Source of the DNA: Bacilli bacterium
Lineage (GTDB): Bacteria; Bacillota_I; Bacilli_A; RFN20; CAG-826
Reading direction: 5' to 3'
DNA: 64,000 bases
Assembly (NCBI GenBank): GCA_035361955.1
Contig: DAOSDC010000004.1
Location: 14,916-78,915 of the forward strand
Part shown: positions 14,177-47,178 of the stretch, one piece after another
Position numbering within the stretch: position 1 is the stretch's first letter
Layout of the letters: every line of letters begins with the position of its first letter
Made by a program: the position numbers and the translations under genes
Notes under the pieces: generated by a model
What the model was told of the DNA's origin: nothing
Databases searched by the model: none
The model's input: the letters and a program-made list of their open reading frames with translations, nothing else

Positions 14177-15049
14177 ATGGAAAATTGCATCGTTAGGATT
14201 AACGAATCACTCGATTCTTTTTCGAAGCAGGAAAAGAAAGTCGCTCGCTACATTTTAGACCACCAACAAGAAGTATCGGAGATGACGATTACCGAACTGG
14301 CCCGCAAATGCAAAAGCTCGACAGCGACGATTGTCCGGTTTTGCACGATCATCGGATTTAAAGGATATCGCGACTTTATCAAAAGCTTTTATCACGATGT
14401 TGCCAGCGGTGTCTCCGCCGATGAAAACATTTATGAACTCGACAATAAAAACCCCAATGATTTAAGCATTAAGCAAACTATTGAGGTCGTCAGCAGATTA
14501 AACATCGAATCACTTTCCAATACGCTTAAAATTGTCAATGAAGATTGTATTGAACGGGCGGTATCTGCAATCGATAAATCGTGCCGCGTTTGTCTATACG
14601 CATTAAGCGGATCGATCGTTGTTGCCGAAGATGCCGTGTTTAAATTCGAGCGACTCGGAATTGATTGTAAGTTATACAACACACCTCATTCACAAATATT
14701 GTCGACATCGATTCTGAAACCAGAATGCGTTGCCATCTTTATCTCGTATTCAGGCGAGACGAAGGAAATCATCGACGCCGCGGAGATTGCCACATCACGC
14801 GGTGTCACGACAATTTCGATTACAAAATACGGCGAAAATCCTTTAAAGAAAGTTTGTAACATTAACATTCAACACTCATCGATTGGCAAAGGACTGCGAA
14901 CGATGTCAACCCGTTCGCGTATCGTGCAGCAAAACATCGTCGACATCCTTTATGTCGCGCTGGCGCAACGCCGAGGCGATTACCTGAAACGGTATTACGA
15001 ACTATTTGATTACGCGCCGCAAACCGAAAAGAAAAACGGCAAAAAATAA
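14177..15049 (+). CDS. RpiR/MurR-family transcriptional regulator (HTH_6 + SIS domain)
   Basis: RBS AAGGAGAG. N-terminal LDSFSKQEKKVARYILDH...TITELARKCKSSTATIVRFC helix-turn-helix. C-terminal SIS-like region. Confidence 0.75.
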   Translation: MENCIVRINESLDSFSKQEKKVARYILDHQQEVSEMTITELARKCKSSTATIVRFCTIIGFKGYRDFIKSFYHDVASGVSADENIYELDNKNPNDLSIKQTIEVVSRLNIESLSNTLKIVNEDCIERAVSAIDKSCRVCLYALSGSIVVAEDAVFKFERLGIDCKLYNTPHSQILSTSILKPECVAIFISYSGETKEIIDAAEIATSRGVTTISITKYGENPLKKVCNINIQHSSIGKGLRTMSTRSRIVQQNIVDILYVALAQRRGDYLKRYYELFDYAPQTEKKNGKK

Positions 15050-15220
15050 CCAATTTATTGACCACGGATCACCGCCACTATTATTAGGGTATTAAATTCG
15101 TGGTTTTTTGTTTCAGTGAAAAAATACTGCAAATCCGCCCTTGTTTTTTTATATCAATACGCTAATGAAGCGCTTTTAGTATTAACAATCATGAATTTGA
15201 ATGGCTATGTGATATAGTCA

Positions 15221-16924
15221 ATGTATCCAGAACCGCTTATGTTACACGACATTAAAAAATGGAAAAACTACCCGCGTCTACTTACGTCATATCGTAAGGA
15301 AATGTCGGCACTTTCGGATAGTCGACTTCACGAATCATTCTATCGCGACATTGATTTTGGCACCGGTGGCATGCGGGGAGAAATGGGTGCGGGCACTAAC
15401 CGCATCAACGACTATACCATCAAGCAAGCGACAATCGGGCTTGCCTATTATTTACTTGAAAAAAATCCACGACCAATCAATATCGTGATTGCCTATGATA
15501 CAAGAACCAATTCAAAGCGCTATGCCCAAGTGGCAGCGCGCACCTTAGCATATTACGGCATTTATTCACATGTGTTTACGAATCCAAGACCGACTCCACA
15601 ATTATCGTTCATGGTTAGATACTTACACGCGCAAGCGGGCATCGTGATTACCGCAAGTCATAATCCGCCTATTTATAATGGTTACAAAATCTATGATCAA
15701 GAAGGCTGCCAATTTGTTCCCCTACTAGCCGACATTATCAAAGAAAAAATCAGACTTCATGGCGATTATTTTGCATTTGAACTACCGACATATTCTAAAG
15801 CGAAGCAAGCAGGATTTATTAAAACACTATCAAGTAAAGACGATGTGCCATATATCAGTTTTCTTAACGCTTTAGCGATTAGGAAAAATGATAATAAAAC
15901 AATCAAAATCGTGTATACACCGCTGCATGGCACCGGATATGCGTTTGGAGCAAAGTTGTTGGCAACTGCGGGCTATCAAGTCGATGTCGTCAAAGAGCAG
16001 TCTTTCCCCGACGCCATGTTTTCAACGCTAACTTCACCAAATCCTGAAAATCCGAAAGCGTTTATACTCGCCGAAGCTTTGGCGAAACAAACAGGAGCCA
16101 CGCTGTTATTAGCGACCGATCCGGACGCCGATCGTCTTGGAGTGGCCATCAAGCAAAACGAAAATTTCACATATTTATCAGGATCACAGCTCGGTGCATT
16201 AATGCTCGATTACTTGCTAAAAAACAAACCGGGAACAAACCAGGATGTCGTCATTTCGACGATTGTTACGCCTTCTCTTGGTGTCAATATTGCCAAAGCC
16301 CACGGCCTAGAAACGATATTGACACTGACGGGCTTTAAATTCATTGGCGAACAAATCGCCAAACTAGATAAGGTAAAAAAGTTCTATTTCGGCTTTGAAG
16401 AATCGTTTGGCTATCTACTTTCAAGCCAAGTGCGTGATAAAGATGCCTTCCAAGCGATGCTACTGGCCGCGGAAATGTTTAACTACTATCAACAATCAAA
16501 CATCAGCGCTGACCAAGCATTGATTGCCCTTTATGAAACCTATGGCTATTACCAAGACGAATTAATGAATTTCGATTTGCCCGGGTCGATGGGAATGACC
16601 ACGATGAATAACATCATGAACCATGTCCGAGACAATCCGCTTCATGTCCTTGACGGGCAATCAATCATCAAATACGAAGATTACCTTGTTCAGCAAGGGC
16701 AAAATATAGACGGGACTATCTACGATCTTAAATTTCCACAATCAGATGTGATTAAACTATTTATCAGTGAAGACAGCACAATTGTATTTCGACCATCAGG
16801 CACCGAACCAAAGCTAAAGGTGTATGTATCGATGGTTGATAAAGACGAACAAATATCGAAATCAAAGTTATTTGAAGTTAAGCAAGCAATTACCAAGATT
16901 ATGGAGCGGTTTATCAAACCATGA
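15221..16924 (+). CDS. pgcA: alpha-D-phosphohexomutase (phosphomannomutase/phosphoglucomutase)
   Basis: GTGGMRGEMG, active-site TASHNPPIYNGYKIY, and a metal-binding DPDADR motif. Confidence 0.85.
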   Translation: MYPEPLMLHDIKKWKNYPRLLTSYRKEMSALSDSRLHESFYRDIDFGTGGMRGEMGAGTNRINDYTIKQATIGLAYYLLEKNPRPINIVIAYDTRTNSKRYAQVAARTLAYYGIYSHVFTNPRPTPQLSFMVRYLHAQAGIVITASHNPPIYNGYKIYDQEGCQFVPLLADIIKEKIRLHGDYFAFELPTYSKAKQAGFIKTLSSKDDVPYISFLNALAIRKNDNKTIKIVYTPLHGTGYAFGAKLLATAGYQVDVVKEQSFPDAMFSTLTSPNPENPKAFILAEALAKQTGATLLLATDPDADRLGVAIKQNENFTYLSGSQLGALMLDYLLKNKPGTNQDVVISTIVTPSLGVNIAKAHGLETILTLTGFKFIGEQIAKLDKVKKFYFGFEESFGYLLSSQVRDKDAFQAMLLAAEMFNYYQQSNISADQALIALYETYGYYQDELMNFDLPGSMGMTTMNNIMNHVRDNPLHVLDGQSIIKYEDYLVQQGQNIDGTIYDLKFPQSDVIKLFISEDSTIVFRPSGTEPKLKVYVSMVDKDEQISKSKLFEVKQAITKIMERFIKP

Positions 16925-17871
16925 ATGACATCACCACGATAAAACTCAAACCGGTTTTCCAACAAAAGATTTGGGGTGGGCGTCGCCTCGAAAAGTATTT
17001 TGGTAATTTATTACCAACAGGCAATATTGGCGAATGCTGGCTCATATCAGCGCATCCTAACGGAGACACTATCGTTGATGGAGGACCGCTTGATGGAATG
17101 CCGCTGAGTCAGGTTTATCGGCAGCACAAACACCTGTTCGGCAATTCCTCATACAGCGAATTTCCGTTAATTATTAAAATCATCGATGCGAGTGACGATT
17201 TATCAGTGCAAGTTCATCCTGATGACAATTACGCCCATACGATTGGCCAACCATATGGAAAAGAAGAAGCGTGGTTAATCCTCGAACCTTCCATCGATAG
17301 AATGGTGCAACTTGGTCATTATGCCCAGTCAAAAGAACAACTTTCACATTTGATCACAAATGGAGAATGGAAGCGCCTATTGAAGTATTATCCGATTGCC
17401 AAAAACGATTTGGTGCCAGTTAAGCCCGGCACACTCCACGCGATCTTAAAAGGAACGATGATTCTTGAAATACAGCAATCATCGGACACGACCTATCGTC
17501 TATATGATTATGATCGGCTTGATGATGCGGGAAATAAAAGACCACTACATATCAAAGAGTCAATCGAAGTCATATCGGTTCCCGATCCAGCCGGTGGACC
17601 AATCCATATCCAAGAAGCATTAAAGCAACAAACCGCGATGCTTTGGTCTGGTCACTACTTTTCAATCCATGAATGGAATGTGACTACACAAATGAATGTC
17701 ATACTTGAAAGCGGTAATTTTTATCTTCTAACGATTCTATCAGGCACAGGAACGATTAATGGGGTACCTTGTCAAATGGGTGATGCCGTGATTATTACAT
17801 CACTTGCCAAGACAATCGACATTAAAGGAAAAATGAGAATCGTAACTGCGATTCCAGCAAAGGGAGCTTGA
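16921..17871 (+). CDS. manA: Mannose-6-phosphate isomerase, class I
   Basis: Type I PMI motifs QVHPDDNYA and GKEEAWLILE. About 316 aa, like Bacillus ManA. It overlaps pmm by 4 nt. Confidence 0.8.
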   Translation: MNDITTIKLKPVFQQKIWGGRRLEKYFGNLLPTGNIGECWLISAHPNGDTIVDGGPLDGMPLSQVYRQHKHLFGNSSYSEFPLIIKIIDASDDLSVQVHPDDNYAHTIGQPYGKEEAWLILEPSIDRMVQLGHYAQSKEQLSHLITNGEWKRLLKYYPIAKNDLVPVKPGTLHAILKGTMILEIQQSSDTTYRLYDYDRLDDAGNKRPLHIKESIEVISVPDPAGGPIHIQEALKQQTAMLWSGHYFSIHEWNVTTQMNVILESGNFYLLTILSGTGTINGVPCQMGDAVIITSLAKTIDIKGKMRIVTAIPAKGA

Positions 17872-18758
17872 TTGTGAAATATTCGATTGGGGTCGATATC
17901 GGAGGCTCACTCGTTCGTGTCGCCATTGTCGATGAAATGGGCGCTATTCATTATCAACAAGCCGAACCGACTATCAAGCAAGACAAGTTAAAACTTTTAG
18001 CGCAACTCAAAGCCATGATTCAAGCCGCTGCTAATATGGAATTTGACATCGTGGGTATTGGCATTGGGATATCTGGCCCAGTTACACCTAATACTGGCTA
18101 TGTCCATGCATTGCCTAACATCGGCGTTGAAGACTTGGATGTCAAACAATACTTATCCGAATTCTTTTCGCTTCCGATATACGTTGTTAACGATGCCAAT
18201 GCGGCGGGGTTAGCCGAAGCGATATTTGGCGCTGGTAGAGGATATCGTGTCGTGCAATACGTAACATTGTCAACCGGCATCGGCGGTGGTCTTGTCATCG
18301 ATGGCAAAATCTGGACGGGTACGCACGGTTTTGCTCAAGAAATTGGCAATATGATTATTAAACGTGGAAGACCCTCACCTAATAGTCAAATGAATCCTGA
18401 TAGTTTTGAATCATGGTGTTCAGGAGCTAGTCTTGTCAAAATAGCCAATGAGAAAGGCATTAATGTTTTAACAACAAAAGATGTGTTTGATAATCCAATG
18501 TGCACGCCAATCGTCGATGAATGGATTGATCATTTGGGTATCGCTTTAAGCAATTTATATAACATACTAGAACCCGATGTAATCGTTCTTGGTGGCGGAA
18601 TCATGAAATCAAGTGCGCGATTCTTCAATCGTATCCTGCCAAGCGTAACACGTTATGTTTATAAACAAACAACAAAACATGTTTTAATCAAACAAGCGGA
18701 GTTAGGACAAAATTCAGGCCTTATTGGCGCAGCTTTATTATCGTTTCACAGACAATAA
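17868..18758 (+). CDS. ROK-family sugar kinase (gluco-/manno-/fructokinase)
   Basis: N-terminal GVDIGGSLVRVAIVD ATP-binding motif and the ROK signature region. It overlaps manA, with a TTG/GTG start. Confidence 0.7.
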   Translation: MIVKYSIGVDIGGSLVRVAIVDEMGAIHYQQAEPTIKQDKLKLLAQLKAMIQAAANMEFDIVGIGIGISGPVTPNTGYVHALPNIGVEDLDVKQYLSEFFSLPIYVVNDANAAGLAEAIFGAGRGYRVVQYVTLSTGIGGGLVIDGKIWTGTHGFAQEIGNMIIKRGRPSPNSQMNPDSFESWCSGASLVKIANEKGINVLTTKDVFDNPMCTPIVDEWIDHLGIALSNLYNILEPDVIVLGGGIMKSSARFFNRILPSVTRYVYKQTTKHVLIKQAELGQNSGLIGAALLSFHRQ

Positions 18759-18856: not shown

Positions 18857-18901
18857 TAAAGTTGTATAACTATAAAAGCGCTTACTTATAGGAGAACGAT
18901 T

Positions 18902-36836: not shown

Positions 36837-37762
36837 GTGTTCAGCTCCTCGTATTCGACAAACGGATCTTCAATGATGGCATAGTGGGCCTCGGCATCAG
36901 ATAGACCGGTATACAAAGTGGCCGTGCCGTCGTGATTACGGACCAACCCCCCGACAAATACGACATCGATTAAATCGAGTCTTTTAGCGGCACCTTGTTC
37001 AAAATCCGATCGTTCGCAAATGATTTTCATCGGGGTACGTTTGCGTGAAATCGGGTCAAGCGCGAAGGTCATCCCATAGTAGTGGCGAATGTCGCCTTGA
37101 CTCATGCGCGCGACATGGCCGAGCACGCCTATCATGCCATTTTTCAGGACGTGGACTTGATTGGCGCCACCCCAGCATTCATCGCCGAATAAATCATCAA
37201 GCAGCGGGGCTTTTTGAATGAATTCTGTCGTGATGTGATATAGCGCATCGGTAGAGTCAAAACCAATCTTGCCCCATTTGGCATCGCCACCTTGGGGACG
37301 GCTCATCATGTAGTAATGATTGCCTTTAGCAACTCTGACATCTTTCATTTTCAGTGGCGCTTCAATGATGATTCGTAAATCGCGGAACGACGTTCCTTGA
37401 TAAAACACCGTGCGCCAAGAAGTGATTTTCCCAGTCGTGTCAGGATGAATTTGTGTACCACCGACAAGCAGTTTCCCATCGATGATTTCCACGAACGGAT
37501 CTTGCAGGTTTTCGATGACTTCCCGCGTGGCTTCATAAATATCGGTGCCGATTCGCTTAAAGAATCGGACTGTTGATATTTCGCTATCGCGCTTTTCGAC
37601 GCGGCCGGCGATATAGCGTTCACCTTCAAAAACAAATTCCGAGGAAATGTTGTACACGTCAAAGCCTCGAACACCCAAAAAATGGATTTTTTTCGTAGCT
37701 TTGATGTGGGTGTTTGCCCGGTGGGCTGTTAATAAGTTATCTAAATTGCATTTGTTATTCAT
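36833..37762 (-). CDS. Cytoplasmic GH130-related/DUF1861-like beta-propeller protein (putative mannoside phosphorylase/hydrolase)
   Basis: No signal peptide. DPFVEIIDGKL and C-terminal LYTGLSDAEAHYAII resemble the GH130 YYGAAD ending. Confidence 0.45.
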   Translation of the reverse strand: MNNKCNLDNLLTAHRANTHIKATKKIHFLGVRGFDVYNISSEFVFEGERYIAGRVEKRDSEISTVRFFKRIGTDIYEATREVIENLQDPFVEIIDGKLLVGGTQIHPDTTGKITSWRTVFYQGTSFRDLRIIIEAPLKMKDVRVAKGNHYYMMSRPQGGDAKWGKIGFDSTDALYHITTEFIQKAPLLDDLFGDECWGGANQVHVLKNGMIGVLGHVARMSQGDIRHYYGMTFALDPISRKRTPMKIICERSDFEQGAAKRLDLIDVVFVGGLVRNHDGTATLYTGLSDAEAHYAIIEDPFVEYEELNT

Positions 37763-37766: not shown

Positions 37767-38666
37767 TTATCCTTTAATGCCGACGCCGGCGACGCTTTGG
37801 AGAAATTTCTTTTGCATGAAGCTGAATAATAAGACGACGGGTATTAAGGCAATCAAACTGGCAACCGAGACATAGTTCCATGGCACTAGATACGAACTTG
37901 AACCGCTTTGGAATAAGTTCTCGAATATCGAGATGCTGTTAGCCATGACCCAATTACTCTTATCGGAAATGTATAATGCCGGACCATATAAATCGTTATA
38001 TGTACCCACGAAATATAGCAATACGACTGTCACGATTACGGGAACATTCAGGGGCAGTACAATCTTGAAGAAGATGCGCATTTCGCCATACCCATCCATA
38101 CGTGCCGCTTCAATTAGTGGTTTAGGCACCGTTTGGAAGAATTGACGGAACATAAAAATCACGAATACGTCGGTGGCAAACCACGAGCCAATCCATAGGG
38201 GGATATACGCTACTTCTTTAAGACCAGCGTTGACCATGAACTCGTAAATCGGGATGCCTAATATTTCACCCGGAATCATCATCGTCGAAAGCAGGATGAA
38301 AAAGATGATGTTTTTGCCAGGAAATTTGAACATCGCAAACGCATAAGCTGCCATCGAACAAGTAAGAACAGTCCCCAATGTCTTCATTGCAAAGATGAAC
38401 ATCGTGTTCAAAAACATGCGTAGCACATTGTAATCGGGATGAGCGAGCACGAAGCGGATGTTTTCGAATAGCGCGAACGAGCGGGGGAACATCGTCGCCA
38501 TCGTCGAGGCTTCGTTTAAATCTTTCATAGCCGTGATCATTAAGTAGTACAGCGGTAATAGCGCGACAATCGCAAATAATATGAGCAACACATAAGTGAT
38601 GACTTGTTGCGTTTTGCGCGACATGCTTGTTTTACTATGCCGAGTTTGTTTCAATCGCATTTCCAT
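37767..38666 (-). CDS. CUT1 carbohydrate ABC transporter permease (MalG/UgpE-like)
   Basis: 6 TM segments. EAA loop EAARMDGYGEMRIFFKIVLPL. Confidence 0.8.
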   Translation of the reverse strand: MEMRLKQTRHSKTSMSRKTQQVITYVLLILFAIVALLPLYYLMITAMKDLNEASTMATMFPRSFALFENIRFVLAHPDYNVLRMFLNTMFIFAMKTLGTVLTCSMAAYAFAMFKFPGKNIIFFILLSTMMIPGEILGIPIYEFMVNAGLKEVAYIPLWIGSWFATDVFVIFMFRQFFQTVPKPLIEAARMDGYGEMRIFFKIVLPLNVPVIVTVVLLYFVGTYNDLYGPALYISDKSNWVMANSISIFENLFQSGSSSYLVPWNYVSVASLIALIPVVLLFSFMQKKFLQSVAGVGIKG

Positions 38667-38674: not shown

Positions 38675-39616
38675 CTAACTGATCGTGATGTCTTTCTGCA
38701 CATAAAATTTCGACATTAGGAAGTGAATGCCGGTTAAGGCGAGGATTATCAGGAAGAAAATATAAGCCATCGCCGCGGCATAGCCGAGTCTAAATGGCAT
38801 ATTAAACGCTGTCATAAACATATAAATGGGGAATAACAGCGTCGAATTTGATGGCCAACCTTGACCATTACCCATCACAAACGCCAGTGAGAATGCCCGC
38901 AATCCGTCAATCGTAATCAGGATGACGTTGAAAAATAGCATTGGAGAAATAAGCGGCAATGTGATTTTGAAAAATTGTTGGGTTTTCGAGGCGCCTTCGA
39001 TCTCCGCCACCTCGTATAGTTCACTCGGTATCCCTTGAAGCGCGGCTAGAAACACCAGCATCTTGACACCGAATCCAAACGAACTTATGACAATCATCGT
39101 CATCAGCGCCGAATCAGGCGAAATGTACCATAATGGGGGATTGTTGATGTCAATCAAATTAAGCGCGGTCAACAAATTGTTTATCAAGCCTGTCGTTGGA
39201 TTAAACAAGTTTTTATAGACGGCGCCCACGGCGAAACTAGGAATGATAAACGGCAAGAAATAAATCGTGCGGAACACGCCGATGAATTTAACGCGCGAGT
39301 TTAATAGCATCGCTAAAACCAATGATGTCACAAGCACTAAGGCTCCGCTTATAAGAGCGAAAACAAGCGATTGCTGAATCGATTTGGCAAACAACGGATC
39401 GCTTTTCAGCGCATATAGATAATTGGCCCAGCCCACATAGTTGGGATCGGTGTCGAATATCGTTTTATCAGTAAGACTAAGTACGAATGTGCGAATGATT
39501 GGATATAGATAAAATAAGCCAAATCCTAAAATGGCAATGCCACCAAACATCAAAAAATATTTGTAATTGCGATGGAAGTTTTTCTTGAATGAAAGATGCA
39601 TTGCCTTGCTAGCCAT
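38675..39616 (-). CDS. CUT1 carbohydrate ABC transporter permease (MalF/UgpA-like)
   Basis: EAA loop EVAEIEGASKTQQFFKITLPL. The start is uncertain (39616 or 39601; the track ORF extends to 39688 into the upstream gene). Confidence 0.75.
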   Translation of the reverse strand: MASKAMHLSFKKNFHRNYKYFLMFGGIAILGFGLFYLYPIIRTFVLSLTDKTIFDTDPNYVGWANYLYALKSDPLFAKSIQQSLVFALISGALVLVTSLVLAMLLNSRVKFIGVFRTIYFLPFIIPSFAVGAVYKNLFNPTTGLINNLLTALNLIDINNPPLWYISPDSALMTMIVISSFGFGVKMLVFLAALQGIPSELYEVAEIEGASKTQQFFKITLPLISPMLFFNVILITIDGLRAFSLAFVMGNGQGWPSNSTLLFPIYMFMTAFNMPFRLGYAAAMAYIFFLIILALTGIHFLMSKFYVQKDITIS

Positions 39617-39617: not shown

Positions 39618-40940
39618 TTAACTACCGTACAGTGTCGCGTAATATTGATCGACTTGCGTTTTAATGCGATTGAGCACAATCGTGACATCGGTTTCCGAAC
39701 CGCGCCCGGTATACATCAGTTTATATAGTTCGGCCATCACGATTTCACGCATGACTTTGGAAAAATCGCGTTCGCGCGGTAACGTAACGGCTTCCTCGAT
39801 TGCATCAAACAGAGCATCAGTATTAATGTCTTTTTGTTGTTCTTCGGGCAACGCTTCAATCAAGTCTTGCATATTCTTGAGTGCCCCAACCTTACCGAAC
39901 TCATACATTTTGGTTGCCCCTTCGGATCCGGTCCACATTTTCAAAAACGAAAACGCTTCGCTAACTTGTTTGCTACGTACGGAGATACCAAACGCATCGG
40001 CGGATATTTCCCCACCTTTAGCGCTAGGTCGATCAACAGGCTTTGGCAACACTTGAATATCCCAGTCGATCCCCAAGGCGTCATAGCTAAACCAATCGCC
40101 CATGTGACCGCCGAATATCATCGCCACATTACCACCCAAAAAAGAGTATGAGGAGGCGCTTTCGATTGCGTCCGGCGCAAATTTTGTACCAACGCCACCC
40201 ATTGATTTGTCTCTGAAAAACTGTGTGGCGGCAATTCCTTCGGGCGAGTTGATGGCGCACACCCGATTATTCGAATCGGGAGCGTAGAATGTGCCACCCA
40301 TTTGTTGCACGTACACAAGCCATTCGCCCCACCAGTTAAGTTGGGCTTCAGCGCCAAAGGAAGTATATGTTACGTTGGGGGTCTCACCTGTGAATTTAGA
40401 TAAAACGACACCCGCGGCCTGATAATCATCGTATGTCCAATCCGCTTGCGGATAGACGCTTTCGCTTTGGGTTAAGCCCAATACATCGCGAAGATCGTCA
40501 GCGGAGGCATCGAATAGTGCTTTGTTGTAGTAAAGGAGCGAAGTATTCAGTGAAGTCGGTAGCGCGTAAACTTTTCCATCAATCGTTAACGCATCCATTA
40601 ACGAATCGATGTAGTTGTCAGTATCAATTTCCTCATCCTCATTGATAAGCGTTGTCAAATCAAGTAGCGAAGGTGTCATTGACGTGACGACGACCGTGCT
40701 CGTCTTGATGATGTCGGGTTCATCTTTGGTACCGATTAATTTGCCGATATCTTGACCATATGTCGCTGAAACAGCGATACCGGTTCGTTCGGTAAAGATG
40801 GCAAATAATTCGTCATAACGGCCTTCATCTTCGATATCTAGGGCAATGCGTAATGTTTTGTCGCCATTATTATCACAGGCGGCAAGGACGGGCAGTGTCA
40901 GTATTGATATCAAACTTAATAAAAGTAGCGGCCGTTTCAT
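39618..40940 (-). CDS. Lipoprotein, family-1 extracellular solute-binding protein (oligosaccharide SBP)
   Basis: Lipobox LAACDN. About 440 aa with SBP_bac_1-like composition. It lies adjacent to the two permeases. Confidence 0.7.
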   Translation of the reverse strand: MKRPLLLLSLISILTLPVLAACDNNGDKTLRIALDIEDEGRYDELFAIFTERTGIAVSATYGQDIGKLIGTKDEPDIIKTSTVVVTSMTPSLLDLTTLINEDEEIDTDNYIDSLMDALTIDGKVYALPTSLNTSLLYYNKALFDASADDLRDVLGLTQSESVYPQADWTYDDYQAAGVVLSKFTGETPNVTYTSFGAEAQLNWWGEWLVYVQQMGGTFYAPDSNNRVCAINSPEGIAATQFFRDKSMGGVGTKFAPDAIESASSYSFLGGNVAMIFGGHMGDWFSYDALGIDWDIQVLPKPVDRPSAKGGEISADAFGISVRSKQVSEAFSFLKMWTGSEGATKMYEFGKVGALKNMQDLIEALPEEQQKDINTDALFDAIEEAVTLPRERDFSKVMREIVMAELYKLMYTGRGSETDVTIVLNRIKTQVDQYYATLYGS

Positions 40941-41965
40941 GATACGTTCTCCATATTTTTGAATAGGTCATCGTAAGTCATGTGGCACACAGCGATGTTT
41001 TGGTCACATACGCCATAGTAGATATGGACCATGTCATCATCGTTAGTGACACCACACGTGAAAATGACATTGGGGACAAACCCTTCTTTTTCATAAGGTT
41101 CCGTCGGTTCAATTAAAGGTTGTTTTGATTTTTTGATAACTTTGCTTGGGTCGTCTTTATCAACGAGCAGGGCGCAAAGATGATAACGGTGGTCTTTGTC
41201 GGCGCTATGGTAGATGACGACCCAGCCTTCTTTTGTTAAAAATGGCACGGCGCCAGCGCCCACGCGCGCTGAACATTGATATTCGATGCGAGCCTTCTTC
41301 AGCGCCTCGTGCTCACCCCAGTGGAGCAAGTTCGTGCTTTTAGCCAGCCAAATATCGAGTTTTCCAAAATCGCTCGTCGAAGGACGGTGATAAGCATAGT
41401 ATTGATTATTGATTAATTGCGGAAAAATAACGCAGTCTTTGTTGTCAAAAGGAAAGATGTTGCCAAGCCGATCAAACTTCTTGAAATCATCGGTGACCAT
41501 CAACCCAACGTTGATGCCAAAGCTACTGACTGCGGTATAAGTAATGTAATAACGACCATTGATATACGTGATGCGTGGATCTTCAATTCCATATTCTTCA
41601 TAAACGCTCTCGGGGAAAAGAGGTTGCTCATCAAACACAAAATGATGGCCATCTTCACTACGACCAATCCGGAAGTGCGAGATTGAAGTCAAATAACTTT
41701 CTTCGTGGTTATGAATGACGCGGGCATCGGAAAAATCGTAGTTGGGGTCGCTCATGGCTATTTGGATGAATTGGAATTTCTTGTGGCGCCAGATGGGCAC
41801 ATAAACATAAACGCTGTCGCTTTCCTTCATCGTTTCGGCGACACGGGCAATCATAATCGTCGTTGAGCCGACCTTGATTGTCGCGGGGTTAAACACGCCA
41901 AGCACACGCAGTTCGGGGCTCGTTGGGGCAATGTCTTCGGTTTTAATGATTAAATGCTTTTCCAT
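40937..41965 (-). CDS. Cytoplasmic GH130 beta-mannoside phosphorylase (beta-1,4-mannosylglucose/mannooligosaccharide or Man-beta-1,4-GlcNAc phosphorylase type)
   Basis: No signal peptide. Canonical GH130 motifs GVFNPATI, GIEDPRITYINGRYYITYTAVS, DNKDCVIFP and HIYYGVCDQNIAV. It overlaps the SBP gene by 4 nt (ATGA). Confidence 0.85.
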   Translation of the reverse strand: MEKHLIIKTEDIAPTSPELRVLGVFNPATIKVGSTTIMIARVAETMKESDSVYVYVPIWRHKKFQFIQIAMSDPNYDFSDARVIHNHEESYLTSISHFRIGRSEDGHHFVFDEQPLFPESVYEEYGIEDPRITYINGRYYITYTAVSSFGINVGLMVTDDFKKFDRLGNIFPFDNKDCVIFPQLINNQYYAYHRPSTSDFGKLDIWLAKSTNLLHWGEHEALKKARIEYQCSARVGAGAVPFLTKEGWVVIYHSADKDHRYHLCALLVDKDDPSKVIKKSKQPLIEPTEPYEKEGFVPNVIFTCGVTNDDDMVHIYYGVCDQNIAVCHMTYDDLFKNMENVS

Positions 41966-41969: not shown

Positions 41970-43910
41970 TTACCGGTCGATTGTATATACTTTCAGCAAA
42001 TCAAGCCGCATTTCAGCATCGGCGAATTGCGCACCGATGTCACTTCCGTTGACGACTAGATATAGCCTGAAATTGCTATAGGCAGGGACGAACGTGACCG
42101 TGTGTTGGCCAATCGTATTACCCGAATCGATTTTTAAGGGGTTGGAACTTATCGCGGTTGTGCCGTTGGTCGCATAATAGAGCACCTTGATTTCCCACAT
42201 CGTTTTCACAAATTCGTTCATTTGGTTCAACGCCGTGACATTGAGTAGCATTTGCACGGCATTGACGTCTGTCGCATTGAAGACGTTGCTGACGATGCCT
42301 CCAAAGCAATATTTGGCTTCGGGGTATTTGTTTTGCTTCATCACTAGTTGACTGTTTTCAATGCGTAGCGAAGCGGGGCTTAAAGCATGGATGACAGCAT
42401 CGATGTTTTGTTTCGTGCGATCAGGAATTGTCCAAAGCGACGTGTTCATGAAATCGGTAGGACGGCTTTCCGATAACAGTGTCGTGTTAATGACGCGCAG
42501 GCGATATTTATAAACCTCACTCGAACCCCAAACGACAATGGTCTCTTCGATGTAATCATCGATGCGGTTCCAAGATGGGCTATTCGATGCGTAATCAATC
42601 GGCAAAGTGCCAGTGTATGAGGTTTGATATAGTTTGCCGTCGATGTTGCGATAGGCTGTTGCCGATGCGGTGCCAGTTAAACTCATGGACGCGGCGGCGC
42701 TTGTGCCCGATAAGCGCGATGTCGCCTCGGTTACGTGGGCCGATGTCGAAGGATTAAAGTAGTTTTCGATGATGACGTCGCCGTCAGCGCTTAAATGATC
42801 GTCGAGGGCCACCAACGTTTCGATGGTGACGTTTTGACGCGTATTTAGTCCCCATGTCGTTTTAAATAAATCGGTAAAACGGTTACCATCGGTCGTCGCG
42901 CCTCCGTAGGTAAGCGTCGCCAATTCGTTTTTCAAATTGGTGGTATTTTCAAAGCCGCTTAAAACATTGACGGGCAGTGCCGCTTGCTTGCTTTGGTCAA
43001 TCCGCGATTTGGCGATAATGGTGGCGGTACCCACGCCGATGAATGATAATACGCCAGCTTCGGTAATCGTAGCCACCGTCTCATCGCTTGACGACCAGAT
43101 GACCGATTTATCACTGATCTCGCTAGGGGTGATTGACGAAGTCAACGTGACAGCGGGGCTTCCTTTTAGTTTTTCGATTTTACCGGAGACGATTTCCGCC
43201 GAATTGATGGAAATGCCGGTAACTGCCGGTTGGTTGTTATAAATGGCGATATGCGTAAGCACTAGTTCCGCGGTTTGTCGCTCGCCGTCGGGTCCTTTGG
43301 CGAGAATGTGGAACGTGCAATTTTTCACTTGATTGTCATATTTCCAGCCGGTGTTATATCCCGGGTCGGGCTGGGTGTTCTTTTCACGGTATTTTTGCGA
43401 TAACATGGCGTCGACGACGTTGATGGAAATGAGTCCGGGCGTGCCTTCATCAGACAGCACGTAATAATATTCAATCTCGCCTTCAACCGCGAGTTTGACG
43501 ATATATTGGGAATAACTGCTGACGACGTTCATTTCAAAAATGACCGCTTTTGAAAAATCGAGCGACAGCGCGGGTGTTTGGACACCGCCATAATTATCGA
43601 GACTGGCATCGATATTCCAAATCACGACGGTGTCGTTACTGCTTTCATAGTTGGCGACGCCGGCGGGCGTGCCACTACCAAAGCCACGAATGTCATAAGC
43701 CGTGTAATGGATGCTACTACCATCCCAAACAGGGATGGTGTAAGAAGATGAACCGACGCTTGAAGTTTGGCTATCGGTGGATGTGGTTATTGAACTTGTT
43801 TGACTACTGGATGTGGTTGAAGGCATCGATGTATTCGACGATGAATCACAGCCAATCAAAAACGTTCCGATGATTGCTAATAACATGATCTGAGATCTAC
43901 TTGTTTTCAC
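41970..43910 (-). CDS. Surface lipoprotein with a Ser/Thr-rich linker, a beta-sandwich domain and a Big_2 (bacterial Ig-like) domain. Function unknown.
   Basis: Lipobox LIGCDS. Big_2-like segment ISINSAEIVSGKI...VATITEAGVLSFIGVGTATIIAKS. Confidence 0.6.
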   Translation of the reverse strand: MKTSRSQIMLLAIIGTFLIGCDSSSNTSMPSTTSSSQTSSITTSTDSQTSSVGSSSYTIPVWDGSSIHYTAYDIRGFGSGTPAGVANYESSNDTVVIWNIDASLDNYGGVQTPALSLDFSKAVIFEMNVVSSYSQYIVKLAVEGEIEYYYVLSDEGTPGLISINVVDAMLSQKYREKNTQPDPGYNTGWKYDNQVKNCTFHILAKGPDGERQTAELVLTHIAIYNNQPAVTGISINSAEIVSGKIEKLKGSPAVTLTSSITPSEISDKSVIWSSSDETVATITEAGVLSFIGVGTATIIAKSRIDQSKQAALPVNVLSGFENTTNLKNELATLTYGGATTDGNRFTDLFKTTWGLNTRQNVTIETLVALDDHLSADGDVIIENYFNPSTSAHVTEATSRLSGTSAAASMSLTGTASATAYRNIDGKLYQTSYTGTLPIDYASNSPSWNRIDDYIEETIVVWGSSEVYKYRLRVINTTLLSESRPTDFMNTSLWTIPDRTKQNIDAVIHALSPASLRIENSQLVMKQNKYPEAKYCFGGIVSNVFNATDVNAVQMLLNVTALNQMNEFVKTMWEIKVLYYATNGTTAISSNPLKIDSGNTIGQHTVTFVPAYSNFRLYLVVNGSDIGAQFADAEMRLDLLKVYTIDR

Positions 43911-45995
43911 TTAACGGCACACCACCCTTTTAGTCACGTAGTCATAACGGCTTTGTGCCGTCAATATTTCAATTCGCATCGTATAATCGGTATCTGGTAG
44001 CAATGCTTTGTTATACCGGTAAGTCGCTAATGGTTCGCCATCGTAGGCGAGGATGTCACCGAAATATACTTTCATGTTGACGATTTCATCATCCAATGGT
44101 GCCGACATGGCAATATTGATGTCGGATGATGAAGTAAGCTCTTGTCTAGTTGTGATATTCGTCAAATTGACCGCGGCCTGTTTTCTGGCGATTAACTCGT
44201 CGGCGATGACCACTCCATTATCGGCCATGCTTGGAACCGAATTGGCGGGCAGTTGCCGTACCACCAGCGATTGCTTGGTCGGAACTCTTAAATGCACGGA
44301 GCCTGATACATTACGGGCGAGGATCGTCTGTGATAAAGCGTCGAATAGGTCATATGCATATTCGGGACCTTCATAGTTAACGATATATGCCTGGTTATAC
44401 GGGTTATAAAACAAATAACCCGGCATTTGGGATGGCCCGAAACTATCGGTGGCGTTCAAATCAATGCGCAAAATTCCATTCACATTCGTTTTTTGGGCCA
44501 CAGCCCCGAGGCCCCCGATAAAAGCCGAGCTATACAAACTGAGATCTGAAGGTTGTCCAAACATCGTCGTGGCATCGCCCATGGCATAACCAGTCATTGA
44601 ATTCCAGCTTTGACGGAATCCTTCATAAATAAGCGTGCCTTTTGTATCAAATGGTAAATAACTGTTCATCGATTGGTGTGACAAACTATGCGTTTGCGGG
44701 AAAAAGTAGCGGGCATTGCTGACGAGATTGAGCATGTATTTGCCAATCGCGTTTGCGTAACGGGGGTCGTATTTGACCATGGGTGCTAACGTGGTGGCTA
44801 AATGAAGCGAATTCATCGCAAATGCATAATCGCCGGCTTGCCCGACGAGCCCATGGACCGGATAATCGCCAAACGAGCCGCTCATGACAGCCCAACCCGG
44901 CCGGAACGAGGAATCGCCATCAAATAGAAAATCAATGAATTTACCGATATCGTAGGAGGTGCCATGATGCGCGTTTAATATCGCGGCGATGTATGGTGCG
45001 TAATCGGTTAGAGCTTCATAATTCGGATTCTTTTGATAGGTTTGTAAATAATCGAGTACTTCCTTCGTACCGTCAAGATATTTTTCATCACCCGTTATTT
45101 TATAAGCCGAGTAGAATAACGCCGCGAGTCCACCATTGGGAGGCTCGATGTGACCTCCGGTAACCGTCGGAGATTCAAGCACGACGTTATATCCGACGAA
45201 TTCGTAGTTCGGCACCCCGCTTTTAACGAAATAAGGTAGCGCTTCGAGCCATTCATTCGCCCCGTTAAGCACGATTTCTTGCATGAAGGGGGTGTCAGGA
45301 TAAAGCTCATACAAGCGCGCGAATATTATTTGAGGAAACAGATCGTACCAGAAGCTTTGTCCTTGAACGCCATAGTTATGAACTAATTTCGACCCGGTGT
45401 CATAGCTTGAAAAAGTCATTTCCACGAAATCATAAGTAGTATCACCAAATTGTTGGTTTTGTTTGTCGATGCCGGCATAACTAGCGCCGAGCACTGAAGA
45501 AATCGTGGTCATTGCTTCGCTACCGGAACTGACGACGCGATTATCACCCACGTATGTCGGAAGCCCAAACGTGCGTTTTAGATAACCGGTTTCCAGTGGG
45601 TTATAAACTGGAGGCTGCCGTGGCTGGTCGAGCCAATATCCAATTGGGTTCCATGATGAAGGATCGCTTGAGATGTATGAAGGGATTCTGACAGTCGGAT
45701 CATTGGCAAAACCGAAAATGACCCGGTCGAGCTCTCGAGCCGCTGCTCCATAATCGTAATAGCGGTAATTAGTTGGAATATCTGGGAAAGAATTGATTTT
45801 TGAAATCGTTTTTTCAACACCGATATCGGACGCTAAAAAGGTGGGTTGCTCACTCGATTCACCGCTTGATTCGTTTGAAGTAATTGGCGTTGTAGACGAA
45901 GAAAAATCGCTAACTGAAAGCGATGAAGTTGCCGATTCACACGCTGATAGTAGCAACACCAGAATACCGAGCCCAGTTTTAAGATGTCGTTTTAT
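43911..45995 (-). CDS. Surface lipoprotein of unrecognised family (paralog 2 of 23494..26382). Putative novel glycan-active enzyme. It probably initiates at a non-ATG codon (ATA 45995 or ATT 45998).
   Basis: The track ORF begins with GTG-encoded 'M'LLLSAC at 45959, which is too short for a signal peptide. The in-frame upstream sequence after the TGA at 46008-46010 encodes G-G-E-I-I-KRHLKTGLGILVLLLSAC, a canonical lipoprotein signal, and is preceded by the SD GAGGTGG. The central region is homologous to the 23494 protein. Confidence 0.6.
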   Translation of the reverse strand: MKRHLKTGLGILVLLLSACESATSSLSVSDFSSSTTPITSNESSGESSEQPTFLASDIGVEKTISKINSFPDIPTNYRYYDYGAAARELDRVIFGFANDPTVRIPSYISSDPSSWNPIGYWLDQPRQPPVYNPLETGYLKRTFGLPTYVGDNRVVSSGSEAMTTISSVLGASYAGIDKQNQQFGDTTYDFVEMTFSSYDTGSKLVHNYGVQGQSFWYDLFPQIIFARLYELYPDTPFMQEIVLNGANEWLEALPYFVKSGVPNYEFVGYNVVLESPTVTGGHIEPPNGGLAALFYSAYKITGDEKYLDGTKEVLDYLQTYQKNPNYEALTDYAPYIAAILNAHHGTSYDIGKFIDFLFDGDSSFRPGWAVMSGSFGDYPVHGLVGQAGDYAFAMNSLHLATTLAPMVKYDPRYANAIGKYMLNLVSNARYFFPQTHSLSHQSMNSYLPFDTKGTLIYEGFRQSWNSMTGYAMGDATTMFGQPSDLSLYSSAFIGGLGAVAQKTNVNGILRIDLNATDSFGPSQMPGYLFYNPYNQAYIVNYEGPEYAYDLFDALSQTILARNVSGSVHLRVPTKQSLVVRQLPANSVPSMADNGVVIADELIARKQAAVNLTNITTRQELTSSSDINIAMSAPLDDEIVNMKVYFGDILAYDGEPLATYRYNKALLPDTDYTMRIEILTAQSRYDYVTKRVVCR

Positions 45996-46025
45996 AATTT
46001 CGCCACCTCACAAAGATTCTCATTT

Positions 46026-46060
46026 AGTATAGCATAATGAAAATAAGTGGTATAAAAATT
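46026..46060 (-). promoter_or_regulatory. Candidate sigma-A promoter of the 14-gene minus-strand operon (minus-strand reading: TTATAC, 18-nt spacer, TGcTATACT)
   Basis: The extended -10 TGnTATACT lies about 30 nt upstream of the GAGGTGG RBS of the first operon gene. The region is AT-rich. The -35 is weak. Confidence 0.35.
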
Positions 46061-46170
46061 TAATATTATATTAATAAAAAATTAACCAATTAATATTTGA
46101 TAATTTTTATAATAATTTAAATAAAATGCGGTATAAACGCATATTAGGAATCATTCGTGGTGCGAGTTAA

Positions 46171-47178
46171 TTAATCAATTACCTCAGAAACCGGATTTAA
46201 ATCTTTTACTGATTCCCGTTCGACTAAATGCGATCGCAGTTGCACAAGGGCGTGTTTGCCTTTAATAGCATCGACCATCGCTCCAAACGCTTTGCGGGCG
46301 ACGCTGTCTTTATTAGGACCAACTGAGGTTAATTTTGGCATCAAGTTTTCGCAAAGCATCGTATTGTCAAAGCTGATAACTGAAACATCGTCGGGTACTT
46401 TCAGTCCATTGACGGATAGTAGCGAATATAACTTTTGCGCCGCCGAATCGCAGTGGCAAATGTAGGCTGTCGGCAGATTGTTCAGTGGAAGGTCGAATAA
46501 CGATACTTGGCGCTCAATGTTTTCGTTGATGTGCCAAGCGGGGTCAATTCGTAAGCCCTTTTCATTCATAGCTTTGACATAGCCCATATAGCGATCCGAT
46601 ATTGAGGTCGTCTTATTGATGTTGCCGATAAAACCAATTTTTGTATGACCTTTGTCAATCAGATAGTGAGCCAGCATATAAGAGACCTGATAATTGTCGA
46701 CGTAAAGGAAATTACACGAAAATAGCGGTGAGTAAATATCGATAAAAACGCTGGGAACGGGATGTTTCTCCATAAATTGGAGAATTTTTTGGCTAACTTC
46801 ACAGGCAAAAAACACACCATCGGGATTAAAATTGGCAATCGTCGTTTTGATTTTTTCAACCGGCTGTTCTGGTTCAAGGAATGATATTTGTAACATGCTA
46901 TTTACTTTTGCGAGTTCGGAAGTCAAATAATAGAAAATCGTCGAGTAGTATTGTTCCGATGGAGTTAGGAAAAAATCTTGATTGATGAAAAAGAGAAACC
47001 GTTTCTTATTAATGCCCTGATGCGATGATTTGCCAACATAGCCAACTGATTTGGCGTAAGCCTTGATTTTGCGTCGCAAGGGATCGCTGACGCCCGATTG
47101 GTTGTTGAGCGCTTTAAAAACGGCGACGGTGCTGACGTTCATTTTATCAGCGATAGTCTTTAATGTAATTTTTGCCAT
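46171..47178 (-). CDS. LacI-family transcriptional regulator
   Basis: N-terminal HTH MAKITLKTIADKMNVSTVAVFKALNN. Periplasmic-binding-like C-terminal domain. Confidence 0.8.
   Translation of the reverse strand: MAKITLKTIADKMNVSTVAVFKALNNQSGVSDPLRRKIKAYAKSVGYVGKSSHQGINKKRFLFFINQDFFLTPSEQYYSTIFYYLTSELAKVNSMLQISFLEPEQPVEKIKTTIANFNPDGVFFACEVSQKILQFMEKHPVPSVFIDIYSPLFSCNFLYVDNYQVSYMLAHYLIDKGHTKIGFIGNINKTTSISDRYMGYVKAMNEKGLRIDPAWHINENIERQVSLFDLPLNNLPTAYICHCDSAAQKLYSLLSVNGLKVPDDVSVISFDNTMLCENLMPKLTSVGPNKDSVARKAFGAMVDAIKGKHALVQLRSHLVERESVKDLNPVSEVID

Follow-up and report, generated by a model that had tools for sequence, protein, structure and literature searches.

The polysaccharide utilization locus (PUL) MAN-PUL2 of Bacteroides thetaiotaomicron encodes the GH130 beta-1,2-mannosidase BT3780, the GH125 enzyme BT3781, the GH76 enzyme BT3782 and the phosphatase BT3783 (Cuskin et al., 2015; PMC4978465, PMC4599007). 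In Thermoanaerobacter sp. X-514 the gene cluster Teth514_1785-1796 includes Teth514_1788 and Teth514_1789, for which a division of labor according to chain length was proposed (Chiku et al., 2014; PMC4264767). For family GT108, beta-1,2-mannan is the sole substrate known. Its enzymes work reversibly, and strict transferases occur among them; AsGT of Anaerocolumna sedimenticola is the one characterized bacterial member (in vitro only), and the family has been considered as a bacterial origin of the Leishmania mannogen enzymes (PMC10913872). Here we describe a locus at positions 14177-47178 of a 64,000-nucleotide stretch of DNA (called the window; contig DAOSDC010000004.1, positions 14,916 to 78,915) from a metagenome-assembled genome (MAG) of a Bacilli bacterium. 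Based on sequence and predicted fold, the locus is read as a conserved Gram-positive-type PUL of an Izemoplasmatales/Acholeplasmatales-like Bacilli bacterium, dedicated to mannan with beta-1,2-linked mannose. We estimate the probability of this reading at roughly 0.55.

Comparison with described systems

The locus has a counterpart for each of the four extracytoplasmic activities BT3780 to BT3783, which bears out the likeness to Bacteroides alpha-mannan PULs pointed out in a preliminary description of this DNA. As in MAN-PUL2, surface-tethered enzymes are combined with dedicated glycan-binding proteins in a "selfish" layout with oligosaccharide import. Unlike MAN-PUL2, the locus has no SusC/SusD or periplasm and relies on an ATP-binding cassette (ABC) importer of the CUT1 type and on lipoprotein or transmembrane (TM) anchors. 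It also differs in having no GH92, GH38 or GH99 debranching enzymes, in its phosphoesterase (a metallophosphoesterase, not an EEP-fold enzyme) and in its barrel protein, which is not a sequence member of GH76. The predicted cytoplasmic phosphorolysis by GH130_4 and GT108 is lacking in Bacteroides. No SusC (TonB-dependent) or SusD Pfam domain was found anywhere in the locus, and it is therefore not a PUL in the strict Bacteroidota sense. In Gram-positive bacteria a PUL is defined more loosely as a regulator, a transporter and at least one glycan-degrading enzyme in one locus. The locus falls under this definition with LacI and RpiR regulators, a CUT1 importer, and GH125 and GH130 enzymes, syntenic in about 20 species.

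Like the Teth514 cluster, the locus combines an ABC importer with two cytoplasmic enzymes, here predicted to be beta-1,2-mannoside phosphorylases that yield alpha-mannose 1-phosphate (alpha-Man-1-P). The two Teth514 enzymes belong to GH130_6 and the Man-1-P is converted to GDP-mannose (guanylyltransferase, GT4), whereas here GH130_4 is paired with GT108 and the predicted route leads to fructose 6-phosphate (Fru-6-P) via a mutase and ManA. Some 10 surface proteins are additional to the Teth514 arrangement. The closest characterized relatives of the cytoplasmic GH130 are the GH130_4 beta-1,2-mannobiose phosphorylases Lin0857 and Uhgb_MS, the latter from a gut metagenome (PDB 5B0P and 9ERH; PMC12814180). 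The lid that limits the degree of polymerization (DP) to 2-3 and the +1 residues are kept here. For those enzymes the literature searched describes no genomic neighborhood that includes GT108 and a surface apparatus. With Leishmania MTP1-7 and AsGT the GT108 protein shares PF08950, the five-bladed propeller, the catalytic Asp and the phosphate-pocket Arg (Sernee et al., 2019; PMC10913872). The Leishmania enzymes serve internal reserve cycling, whereas the GT108 gene in the window lies inside a LacI-controlled uptake and degradation operon, pointing to catabolism.

The beta-mannan loci of Roseburia intestinalis comprise a regulator, surface glycanases with carbohydrate-binding modules (CBMs), an ABC importer, GH130 phosphorylases, a phosphomutase and an isomerase. 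The locus follows the same logic for beta-1,2 and alpha-1,6 rather than beta-1,4 linkages; it differs in its anchors (lipoboxes and C-terminal TM helices, not sortase motifs) and in its uncharacterized surface families. A literature search found no complete bacterial beta-1,2-mannoside pathway, no endo-acting enzyme, and nothing on the physiology of bacterial GT108 or on this type of locus.

Predicted cytoplasmic phosphorolytic branch

Families were assigned by Pfam hidden Markov model (HMM) scans of all open reading frames (ORFs) with gathering scores, and NCBIfam equivalog cut-offs were used as an extra test. HMM support for the GH125, GH130, phosphomannomutase (PMM) and mannose-6-phosphate isomerase (PMI) assignments had been set beforehand as the test of the preliminary description. 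It was obtained from Pfam, and for ManA from NCBIfam as well.

The preliminary description also named two cytoplasmic GH130 phosphorylases, and one of them stands. The product of 40937-41965 scores 173 bits against PF04041 (cut-off 26). Its best PDB matches are Lin0857 of Listeria innocua (E 2e-89) and then Uhgb_MS (E 1.5e-80), with the Teth514 enzymes also among the best; beta-1,4-specific GH130 structures are far weaker (E 1e-34 or worse against 1e-89). GH130_4 enzymes are marked by a long lid loop, by Arg88/Val89 and by Arg47 and Glu136 of the +1 subsite, which limit the substrates to beta-1,2-linked DP 2-3 (PMC12814180). In a residue alignment Arg47, Glu136-Asp137, the lid Arg88-Val89 and the long lid loop (Uhgb_MS numbering) are all kept. 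The top NCBIfam model is the Lin0857-type NF050092, whose 386 bits fall under the cut-off of 550 and do not establish orthology. The enzyme is predicted to be a beta-1,2-mannobiose/-triose phosphorylase.

The second gene, 36833-37762, encodes instead a DUF1861 protein of CAZy family GT108 (PF08950, 313 bits against a cut-off of 28). Full-length matches (E 1e-42 to 1e-43) were obtained to PDB chains 2b4w, 6q4x and 6q50, Leishmania MTP2 and MTP4 among them. The catalytic Asp motif LQDPF aligns to the Asp94 motif EDPF of MTP2, and SRPQGG places an Arg at the position of MTP4 Arg150 and MTP2 His161. The active-site Arg alone does not set the phosphorylase activity of GT108 enzymes (PMC10913872). 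In the window and in all syntenic loci the GT108 gene is found directly 3' of the second permease gene. A minimal cassette in an abundant metagenomic organism (locus L050) has the order LacI-SBP-permease-permease-GH130-GT108 (SBP, solute-binding protein), and its GH130 scores above the beta-1,2-mannobiose phosphorylase equivalog cut-off. GT108 genes also occur outside glycan loci in Paenibacillaceae-type genomes, namely Cohnella fermenti (L044, 10001-10945) and L049 (10001-10945). In both, the gene directly follows those for PhoU_div and a PHO4 phosphate transporter, which makes the association of GT108 with phosphate uptake a recurrent one. The position after the permease gene, the L050 cassette and the PHO4/PhoU neighbors favor a phosphate-dependent catabolic role. 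By analogy with Teth514_1788 and Teth514_1789, we favor a GT108 enzyme that would phosphorolyse imported beta-1,2-oligomers and complement the DP 2-3-limited GH130_4. The locus is the first coherent catabolic context for a bacterial GT108.

A candidate glycoside hydrolase family with an (alpha/alpha)6 barrel

The surface proteins u695 and u962 have a common domain of about 480 aa (29% identity over 511 aa, E 2e-49 by blastp). The C-terminal region of u962 is weakly similar to the N-terminus of another surface protein, u646. The structural model of u695 (predicted local distance difference test, pLDDT, 90; predicted template modeling score, pTM, 0.89) shows an (alpha/alpha)6 barrel and, after it, two beta-sandwiches. 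The barrel of u695/u962 is matched by none of the Pfam or NCBIfam models, and PF03663 (Glyco_hydro_76) gave no match even at E<=5. A single-sequence phmmer search of the PDB with u695 returned nothing at E<=1, and the family profile gave only a marginal match to a 36-residue helix motif of the GH76 chain 6u4z (E 1e-3). In fold the u695 barrel is closest to GH76 structures, with BT3782 as the best structural match. An alignment of 34 family members contains the invariant acidic residues E161, E328, E459 and D475 and no adjacent invariant Asp pair; the catalytic pair of GH76 is a consecutive Asp-Asp (e.g., D136/D137 in PDB 6shm).

In 25 loci the u695-family member is flanked by 7 kb or more of sequence on either side, and 23 of them carry a GH130_4-type or GT108 gene within 10 kb, in Bacillota as well as Bacteroidota. 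The PUL of the cultured flavobacterium Pseudozobellia thermophila (L051) has only a hybrid two-component regulator, SusC, SusD, a GH130, a major facilitator superfamily transporter and a u695-family lipoprotein, and its GH130 scores best on the Lin0857-type model. Another locus combines a u695 relative (with two CBM32-like domains), two GT108 genes and an ABC importer, without GH130 or GH125, and similar gene sets are found in Clostridia MAGs. In the Clostridia MAG locus L045 a 1858-aa relative of u962 adjoins GT108. All inspected family members are secreted. Since beta-1,2-mannoside phosphorylases are all that the minimal loci offer as downstream enzymes, release of beta-1,2-manno-oligosaccharides by the barrel is the most economical interpretation. 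The (alpha/alpha)6 barrel of u695/u962 is a candidate new glycoside hydrolase family with a predicted endo-mannanase activity; we tentatively assign it as an endo-beta-1,2-mannanase, at odds somewhat short of even. Endo-beta-1,2-glucanases are (alpha/alpha)6 barrels too, and no endo-beta-1,2-mannanase was found in the literature searched.

If the locus were dedicated to yeast alpha-mannan in the strict Bacteroides MAN-PUL sense, u695 and u962 would be divergent GH76-like endo-alpha-1,6-mannanases, GH125 would finish the backbone and the beta-1,2 enzymes would serve only for the caps. The marginal GH76 hit, which is the sole PDB sequence-profile match of the family, the fold similarity to alpha-1,6-mannanases, the GH125 gene that directly follows in the operon of many relatives and the BT3780-3783 analogy all agree with this. 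However, the family shows neither a Pfam GH76 match at E<=5 nor the invariant Asp pair, and no alpha-mannosidase, cytoplasmic or otherwise, is available in the locus for alpha-mannosides after import. In addition, the u695 family is accompanied in four loci (L051, L052, L035 and L040) by an importer and phosphorylases of the beta-1,2 type but not by GH125, and no other recognizable carbohydrate-active enzyme domain is found there among the Pfam-annotated genes. We consider the alpha-mannan explanation unlikely, although it survives better than the other alternatives discussed below. For the barrel itself, the probability left over by the beta-1,2 and alpha-1,6 activities falls to activities of other kinds.

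In the rumen Clostridia MAG locus L045 (13028-17366), genes for GT108, u962-like, u715-like and F5/8C-GH130 proteins are interleaved with those for two esterases, one of the SASA family and one of the CE2/GDSL type, a hint that in some habitats the natural substrate may carry acetyl groups.

Surface enzymes of known families

The secreted GH130 protein has a hydrophobic N-terminal signal peptide (MKQTMKWFGLLSVFALL) and scores 47.7 bits against PF04041 (cut-off 26). Its nearest PDB chains are 3taw, 5a7v (BT3780), 3qc2 and 3r67. It reaches 56.6 bits against the NCBIfam BT3780-type equivalog NF058598 (cut-off 550) and is a distant member at best. BT3780 carries the carboxylates Glu227 and Glu268 in place of basic phosphate-binding residues, and Lys199 is its beta-1,2 determinant (PMC4599007). 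In a low-confidence stretch of the alignment, the secreted GH130 has the non-basic residues Asp and Asn at the positions of Glu227 and Glu268. Lys199, also in low-confidence alignment, pairs with an Asn that is followed by a Lys three residues on. Asn, Glu-Asp and Asp363 of the -1 subsite are kept. The protein is predicted to be a hydrolase, i.e., an exo-beta-1,2-mannosidase. The F5/8C-GH130 architecture is also found in the related loci L048 and L045.

The GH125 protein matches PF06824 with 376.8 bits over profile positions 6-412 of 414, and the PGAP name is GH125 family protein. From its family membership, the product of 32757-35306 is predicted to be an exo-alpha-1,6-mannosidase.

All metallophosphoesterase motifs (GD, GDxxE, GNHD, H and GHDH) are intact in PAP920. 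Motif II reads GDLVEEG and lacks the Tyr ligand of true purple acid phosphatases, which rules out that assignment; Pur_ac_phosph_N reaches only 22.4 bits (cut-off 30). PAP920 is regarded as a metallophosphoesterase similar to purple acid phosphatases (PAP-like), with a predicted role as a phosphomannan phosphodi- or monoesterase. In locus L047 a PAP920 homolog is encoded directly 5' of the PMM-PMI-ROK-LacI-operon arrangement.

Putative surface binding proteins

The preliminary description listed carbohydrate-binding proteins on the surface. Seven proteins in fact lack a curated family, and two of these (u695 and u962) carry the catalytic-looking barrel described above. An all-against-all blastp comparison of the locus proteins revealed a tandem module of about 350 aa common to five surface proteins: u548, u550, u503 and the N-terminal halves of PAP920 and GH125. 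Between u503 and the other four the identity is 34-40%. The module has no sequence match in Pfam, NCBIfam or the PDB, and a single-sequence PDB search with u550 returned nothing at E<=1. The u550 model (pLDDT 83) shows two beta-sandwiches with a CBM-like fold, a helical stalk and a TM helix. More than 1000 homologs of the module were found, mostly in this lineage and in varied fusions. We propose the module as a candidate new CBM family for substrate targeting, and u548, u550 and u503, in which it stands alone, are predicted to be surface glycan-binding proteins. The u503 gene directly follows GT108 in all syntenic loci.

A u715 homolog occupies the same position in L048 and adjoins GT108 in L045. 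No PDB entry was found at E<=1 in a single-sequence search with u715, which is a candidate adhesin or binding protein. A weak Pfam DUF4992 match in u715 falls in the Ser-rich linker and was set aside. The gene for u646 is always second in the operon, a conserved partner of u695. About four full-length cluster representatives of u646 were found among 1.8 billion proteins; the exhaustive search of representatives was swamped by the Big_2 domain and shows only that full-length relatives are few. We infer that u646 is a glycan-binding protein.

Conservation and lineage

The core LacI-u695-u646-GH130-SBP-permease-permease-GT108-u503-GH125 is syntenic in about 20 species-level MAGs with 50-85% amino acid identity. 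These are species representatives with enough flanking sequence; GH125 was confirmed by identity in about half of them, the 10-kb flank ending inside the gene. In relatives the PMM-PMI-ROK-u548 group is often divergent and adjoins lacI, and lacI adjoins the u695 homolog in nearly all related loci. One other species has the full 17-gene order on one strand of a 610-kb contig: PAP-like esterase-PMM-PMI-ROK-LacI-u695-u646-GH130-SBP-permeases-GT108-u503-GH125-F5/8C-GH130-u715-u550. Compared with that contig, the only additions in the genome of the window are RpiR, u548 and u962. The recurring gene order indicates a conserved functional unit and not a chance neighborhood.

Homologs of u695 are found almost only in MAGs labeled Izemoplasmatales, Acholeplasmatales, Tenericutes, Erysipelotrichia or Bacilli, and in some Clostridia. 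The labels Izemoplasmatales, Acholeplasmatales, Tenericutes and Bacilli fit the wall-less-type lineage that had been suggested for this genome. A MAG labeled Bacillus subtilis (L046, JALMRS010000002.1) carries the same operon with nearly every gene in two to four frameshifted fragments, which suggests assembly or sequencing errors and a doubtful taxon label rather than pseudogenization.

Substrate, proposed pathway and alternatives

The beta-1,2 enzymes, GH125 and the phosphoesterase together point to a mannan with beta-1,2-mannose, alpha-1,6-mannose and phosphate. Candida-type phosphopeptidomannan is the best-known candidate substrate. The only cytoplasmic bond-cleaving enzymes in the locus are the Lin0857-type GH130_4 and GT108. 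The surface catalytic domains are GH125, the GH130 with two CBM32-like domains, the metallophosphoesterase and the two paralogous (alpha/alpha)6 barrels. The pathway logic proposed earlier, from surface trimming through ABC import and phosphorolysis to Man-1-P and on to Fru-6-P, is retained. In the proposed mechanism, u695 and u962 would cut the polymer and free beta-1,2-manno-oligosaccharides, while GH125 would trim alpha-1,6-mannose, the secreted GH130 would take off beta-1,2 caps and PAP920 would remove phosphate or mannosyl-phosphate bridges. The proteins u548, u550 and u503 would hold the glycan at the cell surface. Oligosaccharides would be imported by the ABC system, which would draw on an ATPase gene outside the locus. 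GT108 would then phosphorolyse the longer chains and GH130_4 those of DP 2-3; the resulting alpha-Man-1-P and mannose would be converted to Fru-6-P by the mutase, the kinase and ManA. LacI would control the 13-gene operon, and RpiR, as a phosphosugar sensor, the plus-strand genes.

ManA scores 150 bits against NCBIfam TIGR00218 (cut-off 116), and its gene overlaps each neighbor by 4 nt. The phosphohexomutase is predicted to be a phosphomannomutase (Man-1-P to Man-6-P), and its gene adjoins the operon in L006, L009, L028, L010, L011 and L047. The best NCBIfam model of the ROK protein is the ROK glucokinase subfamily, below cut-off, and a mannose (hexose) kinase is predicted.

Several observations weigh against the beta-1,2-mannan reading. 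In the structural model the u695 barrel is nearest to alpha-1,6-mannanases and to no beta-mannanase, and a whole-chain Foldseek search with u695 lists GH127/GH146 (TM-score about 0.3). The alignment of the secreted GH130 with BT3780 is weak around Lys199, Glu227 and Glu268. The GT108 protein is predicted to be a beta-1,2-manno-oligosaccharide phosphorylase, which sequence cannot tell from a strict GDP-mannose transferase, and the reconstructed strict transferase AncX is 50% identical to it. Neither the phosphohexomutase nor the ROK kinase reaches an NCBIfam equivalog cut-off, and the mutase specificity is for that reason taken from context. The operon structure and its regulation are read from gene spacing. 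The locus lacks side-chain alpha-mannosidases of families GH92, GH38 and GH99, which leaves the full debranching of yeast mannan (alpha-1,2/alpha-1,3 side chains) unexplained.

An internal reserve cycle is a further alternative, in which GT108 and GH130_4 would build and mobilize an intracellular beta-1,2-mannan ("mannogen") out of mannose taken up by the cell, on the model of Leishmania. The reversibility of GT108 enzymes, the strict transferases among them, and the GT108 genes of Cohnella fermenti and one other genome, which stand apart from glycan loci and adjoin PHO4/PhoU, would all suit a reserve function. Here and in about 25 other loci, however, GT108 is translationally packed between permease and surface-protein genes under LacI, a signature of imported-oligosaccharide catabolism, and the locus has no GDP-mannose pyrophosphorylase. 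We regard a reserve cycle as improbable.

Still less probable is a locus for high-mannose N-glycans in which GH125 would act with a Man-beta-1,4-GlcNAc phosphorylase, an arrangement known from the N-glycan systems of streptococci and Bacteroides; N-glycan was offered as a possible substrate in the preliminary description and is dropped here. GH125 and GH130 are both known from N-glycan pathways, and ROK and ManA would fit. On the other hand, no GH18/GH85, GH20, GH38, GH92 or GlcNAc-handling enzyme is found in the locus, the cytoplasmic GH130 has a Glu beside the catalytic Asp, the GH130_4 lid and best matches that are all beta-1,2-specific, and GT108 is known only for beta-1,2-mannan. The least probable explanation is that the locus serves to degrade beta-1,4-mannan or glucomannan from plants with GH130 phosphorylases, as in the Roseburia/Ruminococcus type: the general architecture (surface enzymes, ABC importer, GH130, mutase and isomerase) fits, but there is no GH26, GH5 or GH113 mannanase, no cellobiose/mannobiose 2-epimerase and no esterase, the beta-1,4-specific GH130 structures are the far weaker matches given above, and GH125 and GT108 would have no role. 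The N-glycan and beta-1,4-mannan explanations are thus unsupported because their hallmark enzymes are absent and the GH130 subfamily is wrong.

Gene content and operon layout

The 20 long ORFs of the locus (6 on the plus strand and 14 on the minus strand) were all found at the coordinates of the preliminary description (Table 1). Pfam confirmed the RpiR and LacI regulators, the phosphohexomutase, class I ManA, the ROK kinase, the metallophosphoesterase, GH125, two GH130 proteins, the solute-binding protein and two permeases, and with them the GH125, PAP-like phosphoesterase, ROK, CUT1 importer and regulator assignments made earlier. Hydropathy and reading of the N-termini identified eight proteins with a lipobox followed by a Ser/Thr-rich linker, and hydropathy identified three with a C-terminal TM anchor and a basic tail (at 18902, 23494 and 26415). 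Lipoproteins and TM anchors in place of SusC/D had been anticipated. Proteins identical to those of the locus are on record as HOJ44790-HOJ44799 from a metagenome-assembled "Bacilli bacterium".

The preliminary description counted 14 genes with gaps of at most about 35 nt, consistent with one transcript. The packed minus-strand run comprises 13 genes and spans 22.5 kb (45998 to 23494), with no gap or overlap longer than 32 nt. Between it and lacI lie 172 nt of AT-rich sequence that include a terminator-like hairpin. The hairpin (46142-46126) and a -35/-10-like site (46137-46109) in this gap are consensus matches only. Promoter and terminator consensus scans across the locus gave no more sites than in shuffled sequence, and from the terminator scan only hairpins in intergenic gaps were used; two others lie 3' of the RpiR gene and of u548. 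A palindrome search for a LacI operator 5' of the operon gave only AT-rich low-information repeats, and no operator is claimed. The RpiR gene was not seen adjoining the operon in the loci of relatives. The first operon gene, encoding u695, very probably starts at an ATT (45996-45998, minus strand) located 7 nt past the ribosome-binding site GAGGTGG, which results in a full lipoprotein signal. GTG 45959, the start of the longest ATG/GTG/TTG ORF, would shorten this signal to MLLLSAC. Gene calls on the identical public contig place the start of the secreted GH130 at ATG 32754 and that of permease 1 at 39616. The u548 protein is 48% identical to u550 and has its TM segment at residues 517-535.

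No ABC ATPase was found by Pfam within 14177-47178. The nearest one (MalK OB domain, 11185-12297) lies inside another transporter operon and is the sole candidate in the window to energize the mannoside importer. An ATPase shared between importers is common in Gram-positive bacteria. The left flank contains GH43 genes, aldolases and the other ABC transporter, and the right flank an amidohydrolase and a fab/acc operon. These flanks are unrelated to the locus, and the borders proposed earlier are thus reasonable.

Table 1. Features of the proposed mannoside locus in the window (SP, signal peptide; aa, amino acids)
Feature	Position	Strand	Evidence or remark
RpiR/MurR-family regulator	14177..15049	+	Pfam HTH_6 and SIS phosphosugar-binding; NCBIfam MurR/RpiR below cut-off
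Alpha-D-phosphohexomutase	15221..16924	+	Pfam PGM_PMM I-IV
Class I mannose-6-phosphate isomerase ManA	16921..17871	+	Pfam PMI_typeI_cat and MPI_cupin
ROK-family sugar kinase	17868..18758	+	Pfam ROK, 192 bits
u548 surface protein: SP, tandem CBM-fold module, helical stalk, C-terminal TM	18902..20548	+	No Pfam match
PAP920 lipoprotein: Ser-rich linker, CBM-fold module (aa 161-536), PAP-N, metallophosphoesterase	20695..23457	+	Pfam Metallophos and Pur_ac_phosph_N
u962: SP, (alpha/alpha)6 domain (aa 35-527), further domains, Ser-rich linker, TM 936-954	23494..26382	-	Last operon gene
u550: tandem CBM-fold module, stalk, TM anchor; u548 paralog	26415..28067	-	
u715 lipoprotein: four FN3-like repeats, then GLUG-motif repeats	28098..30245	-	Sequence reading; weak Pfam Glug
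Secreted GH130-type enzyme, two N-terminal F5/8 type C (CBM32-like) domains	30256..32754	-	Pfam
GH125 lipoprotein, N-terminal tandem CBM-fold module (aa 68-400), lipobox LSAC	32757..35306	-	PF06824 at aa 441-835
u503 lipoprotein: tandem CBM-fold module	35325..36836	-	blastp to u550, u548, PAP920, GH125
DUF1861 / CAZy GT108, cytoplasmic	36833..37762	-	PF08950, 313 bits
ABC permease 2, CUT1 type	37767..38666	-	BPD_transp_1; 5-6 hydrophobic segments
ABC permease 1, CUT1 type	38675..39616	-	BPD_transp_1
Importer solute-binding lipoprotein, lipobox LAAC	39618..40940	-	SBP_bac_1 and SBP_bac_8
Cytoplasmic GH130, subfamily 4 type, without SP	40937..41965	-	PF04041, 173 bits
u646 lipoprotein, one Big_2 domain; second operon gene	41970..43910	-	Pfam Big_2 only
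u695 lipoprotein: (alpha/alpha)6 barrel and two beta-sandwich domains; first operon gene	43911..45998	-	
AT-rich intergenic region: lacI terminator-like hairpin, presumed operon promoter/operator	45999..46170	-	Sequence
LacI-family regulator	46171..47178	-	Pfam LacI and Peripla_BP_3

Other features of the window

Upstream of the locus, 809-5729 (+) contains two tandem paralogs (39% identity), each with a GH43 domain and a C-terminal 3-keto-disaccharide hydrolase-like domain (PF06439); they form a glycan-degrading pair of their own. Two adjacent genes of the class II fructose-bisphosphate aldolase family (313 and 319 aa) are found at 5840-7768 (-); one of them may be a tagatose- or other ketose-bisphosphate aldolase. 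The second transporter operon, at 7919-14048 (+), encodes a 423-aa protein with no Pfam match (possibly a binding protein), a fused double permease of 626 aa and the MalK-OB ATPase, which is followed by an RDD-family protein and a Y_phosphatase3 tyrosine phosphatase. Downstream, a 176-aa ORF of the biotin/lipoate protein ligase family (48881-49411, -), much shorter than typical BirA/LplA proteins, follows fabZ directly as the last gene of the fab/acc operon. A T-box leader at 61014-61245 (+; Rfam RF00230, 99 bits, above gathering) lies 5' of the ORF 61249-62742, which encodes not an aminoacyl-tRNA synthetase or a biosynthetic gene product but a 497-aa beta-eliminating lyase (tryptophanase/tyrosine phenol-lyase family, PF01212). 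The specifier reads UAU (Tyr) in an alignment that is gapped there. A starvation-induced lyase of a degradative type would be unusual, and the enzyme could be used in the synthetic direction.

Significance

In Candida, beta-1,2-mannosides are immunodominant epitopes, and in Leishmania they form the reserve glycan. The characterized degraders of beta-1,2-mannosides are only exo-acting GH130 members and GT108 phosphorylases, and family GT108 has so far been studied by way of its Leishmania members and as a model of enzyme evolution. The locus provides a candidate endo-acting enzyme, a candidate mannan-binding module and a probable physiological role for bacterial GT108. In its widest form the proposal would combine a new endo-beta-1,2-mannanase family feeding phosphorylases in Bacillota and Bacteroidota, a catabolic bacterial GT108 whose operon type would be the ancestral setting of the trypanosomatid mannogen enzymes, and a tandem module that would found a new mannan-binding CBM family; taken jointly, we think this more apt to fail in some part than to hold throughout. 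The locus indicates how an uncultured lineage of the wall-less type, common in digesters, sediments and rumen, assembles PUL-like surface machinery out of lipoproteins and TM-anchored proteins, and it suggests that glycans from the cell walls of fungi or protists are among the food sources of this lineage.

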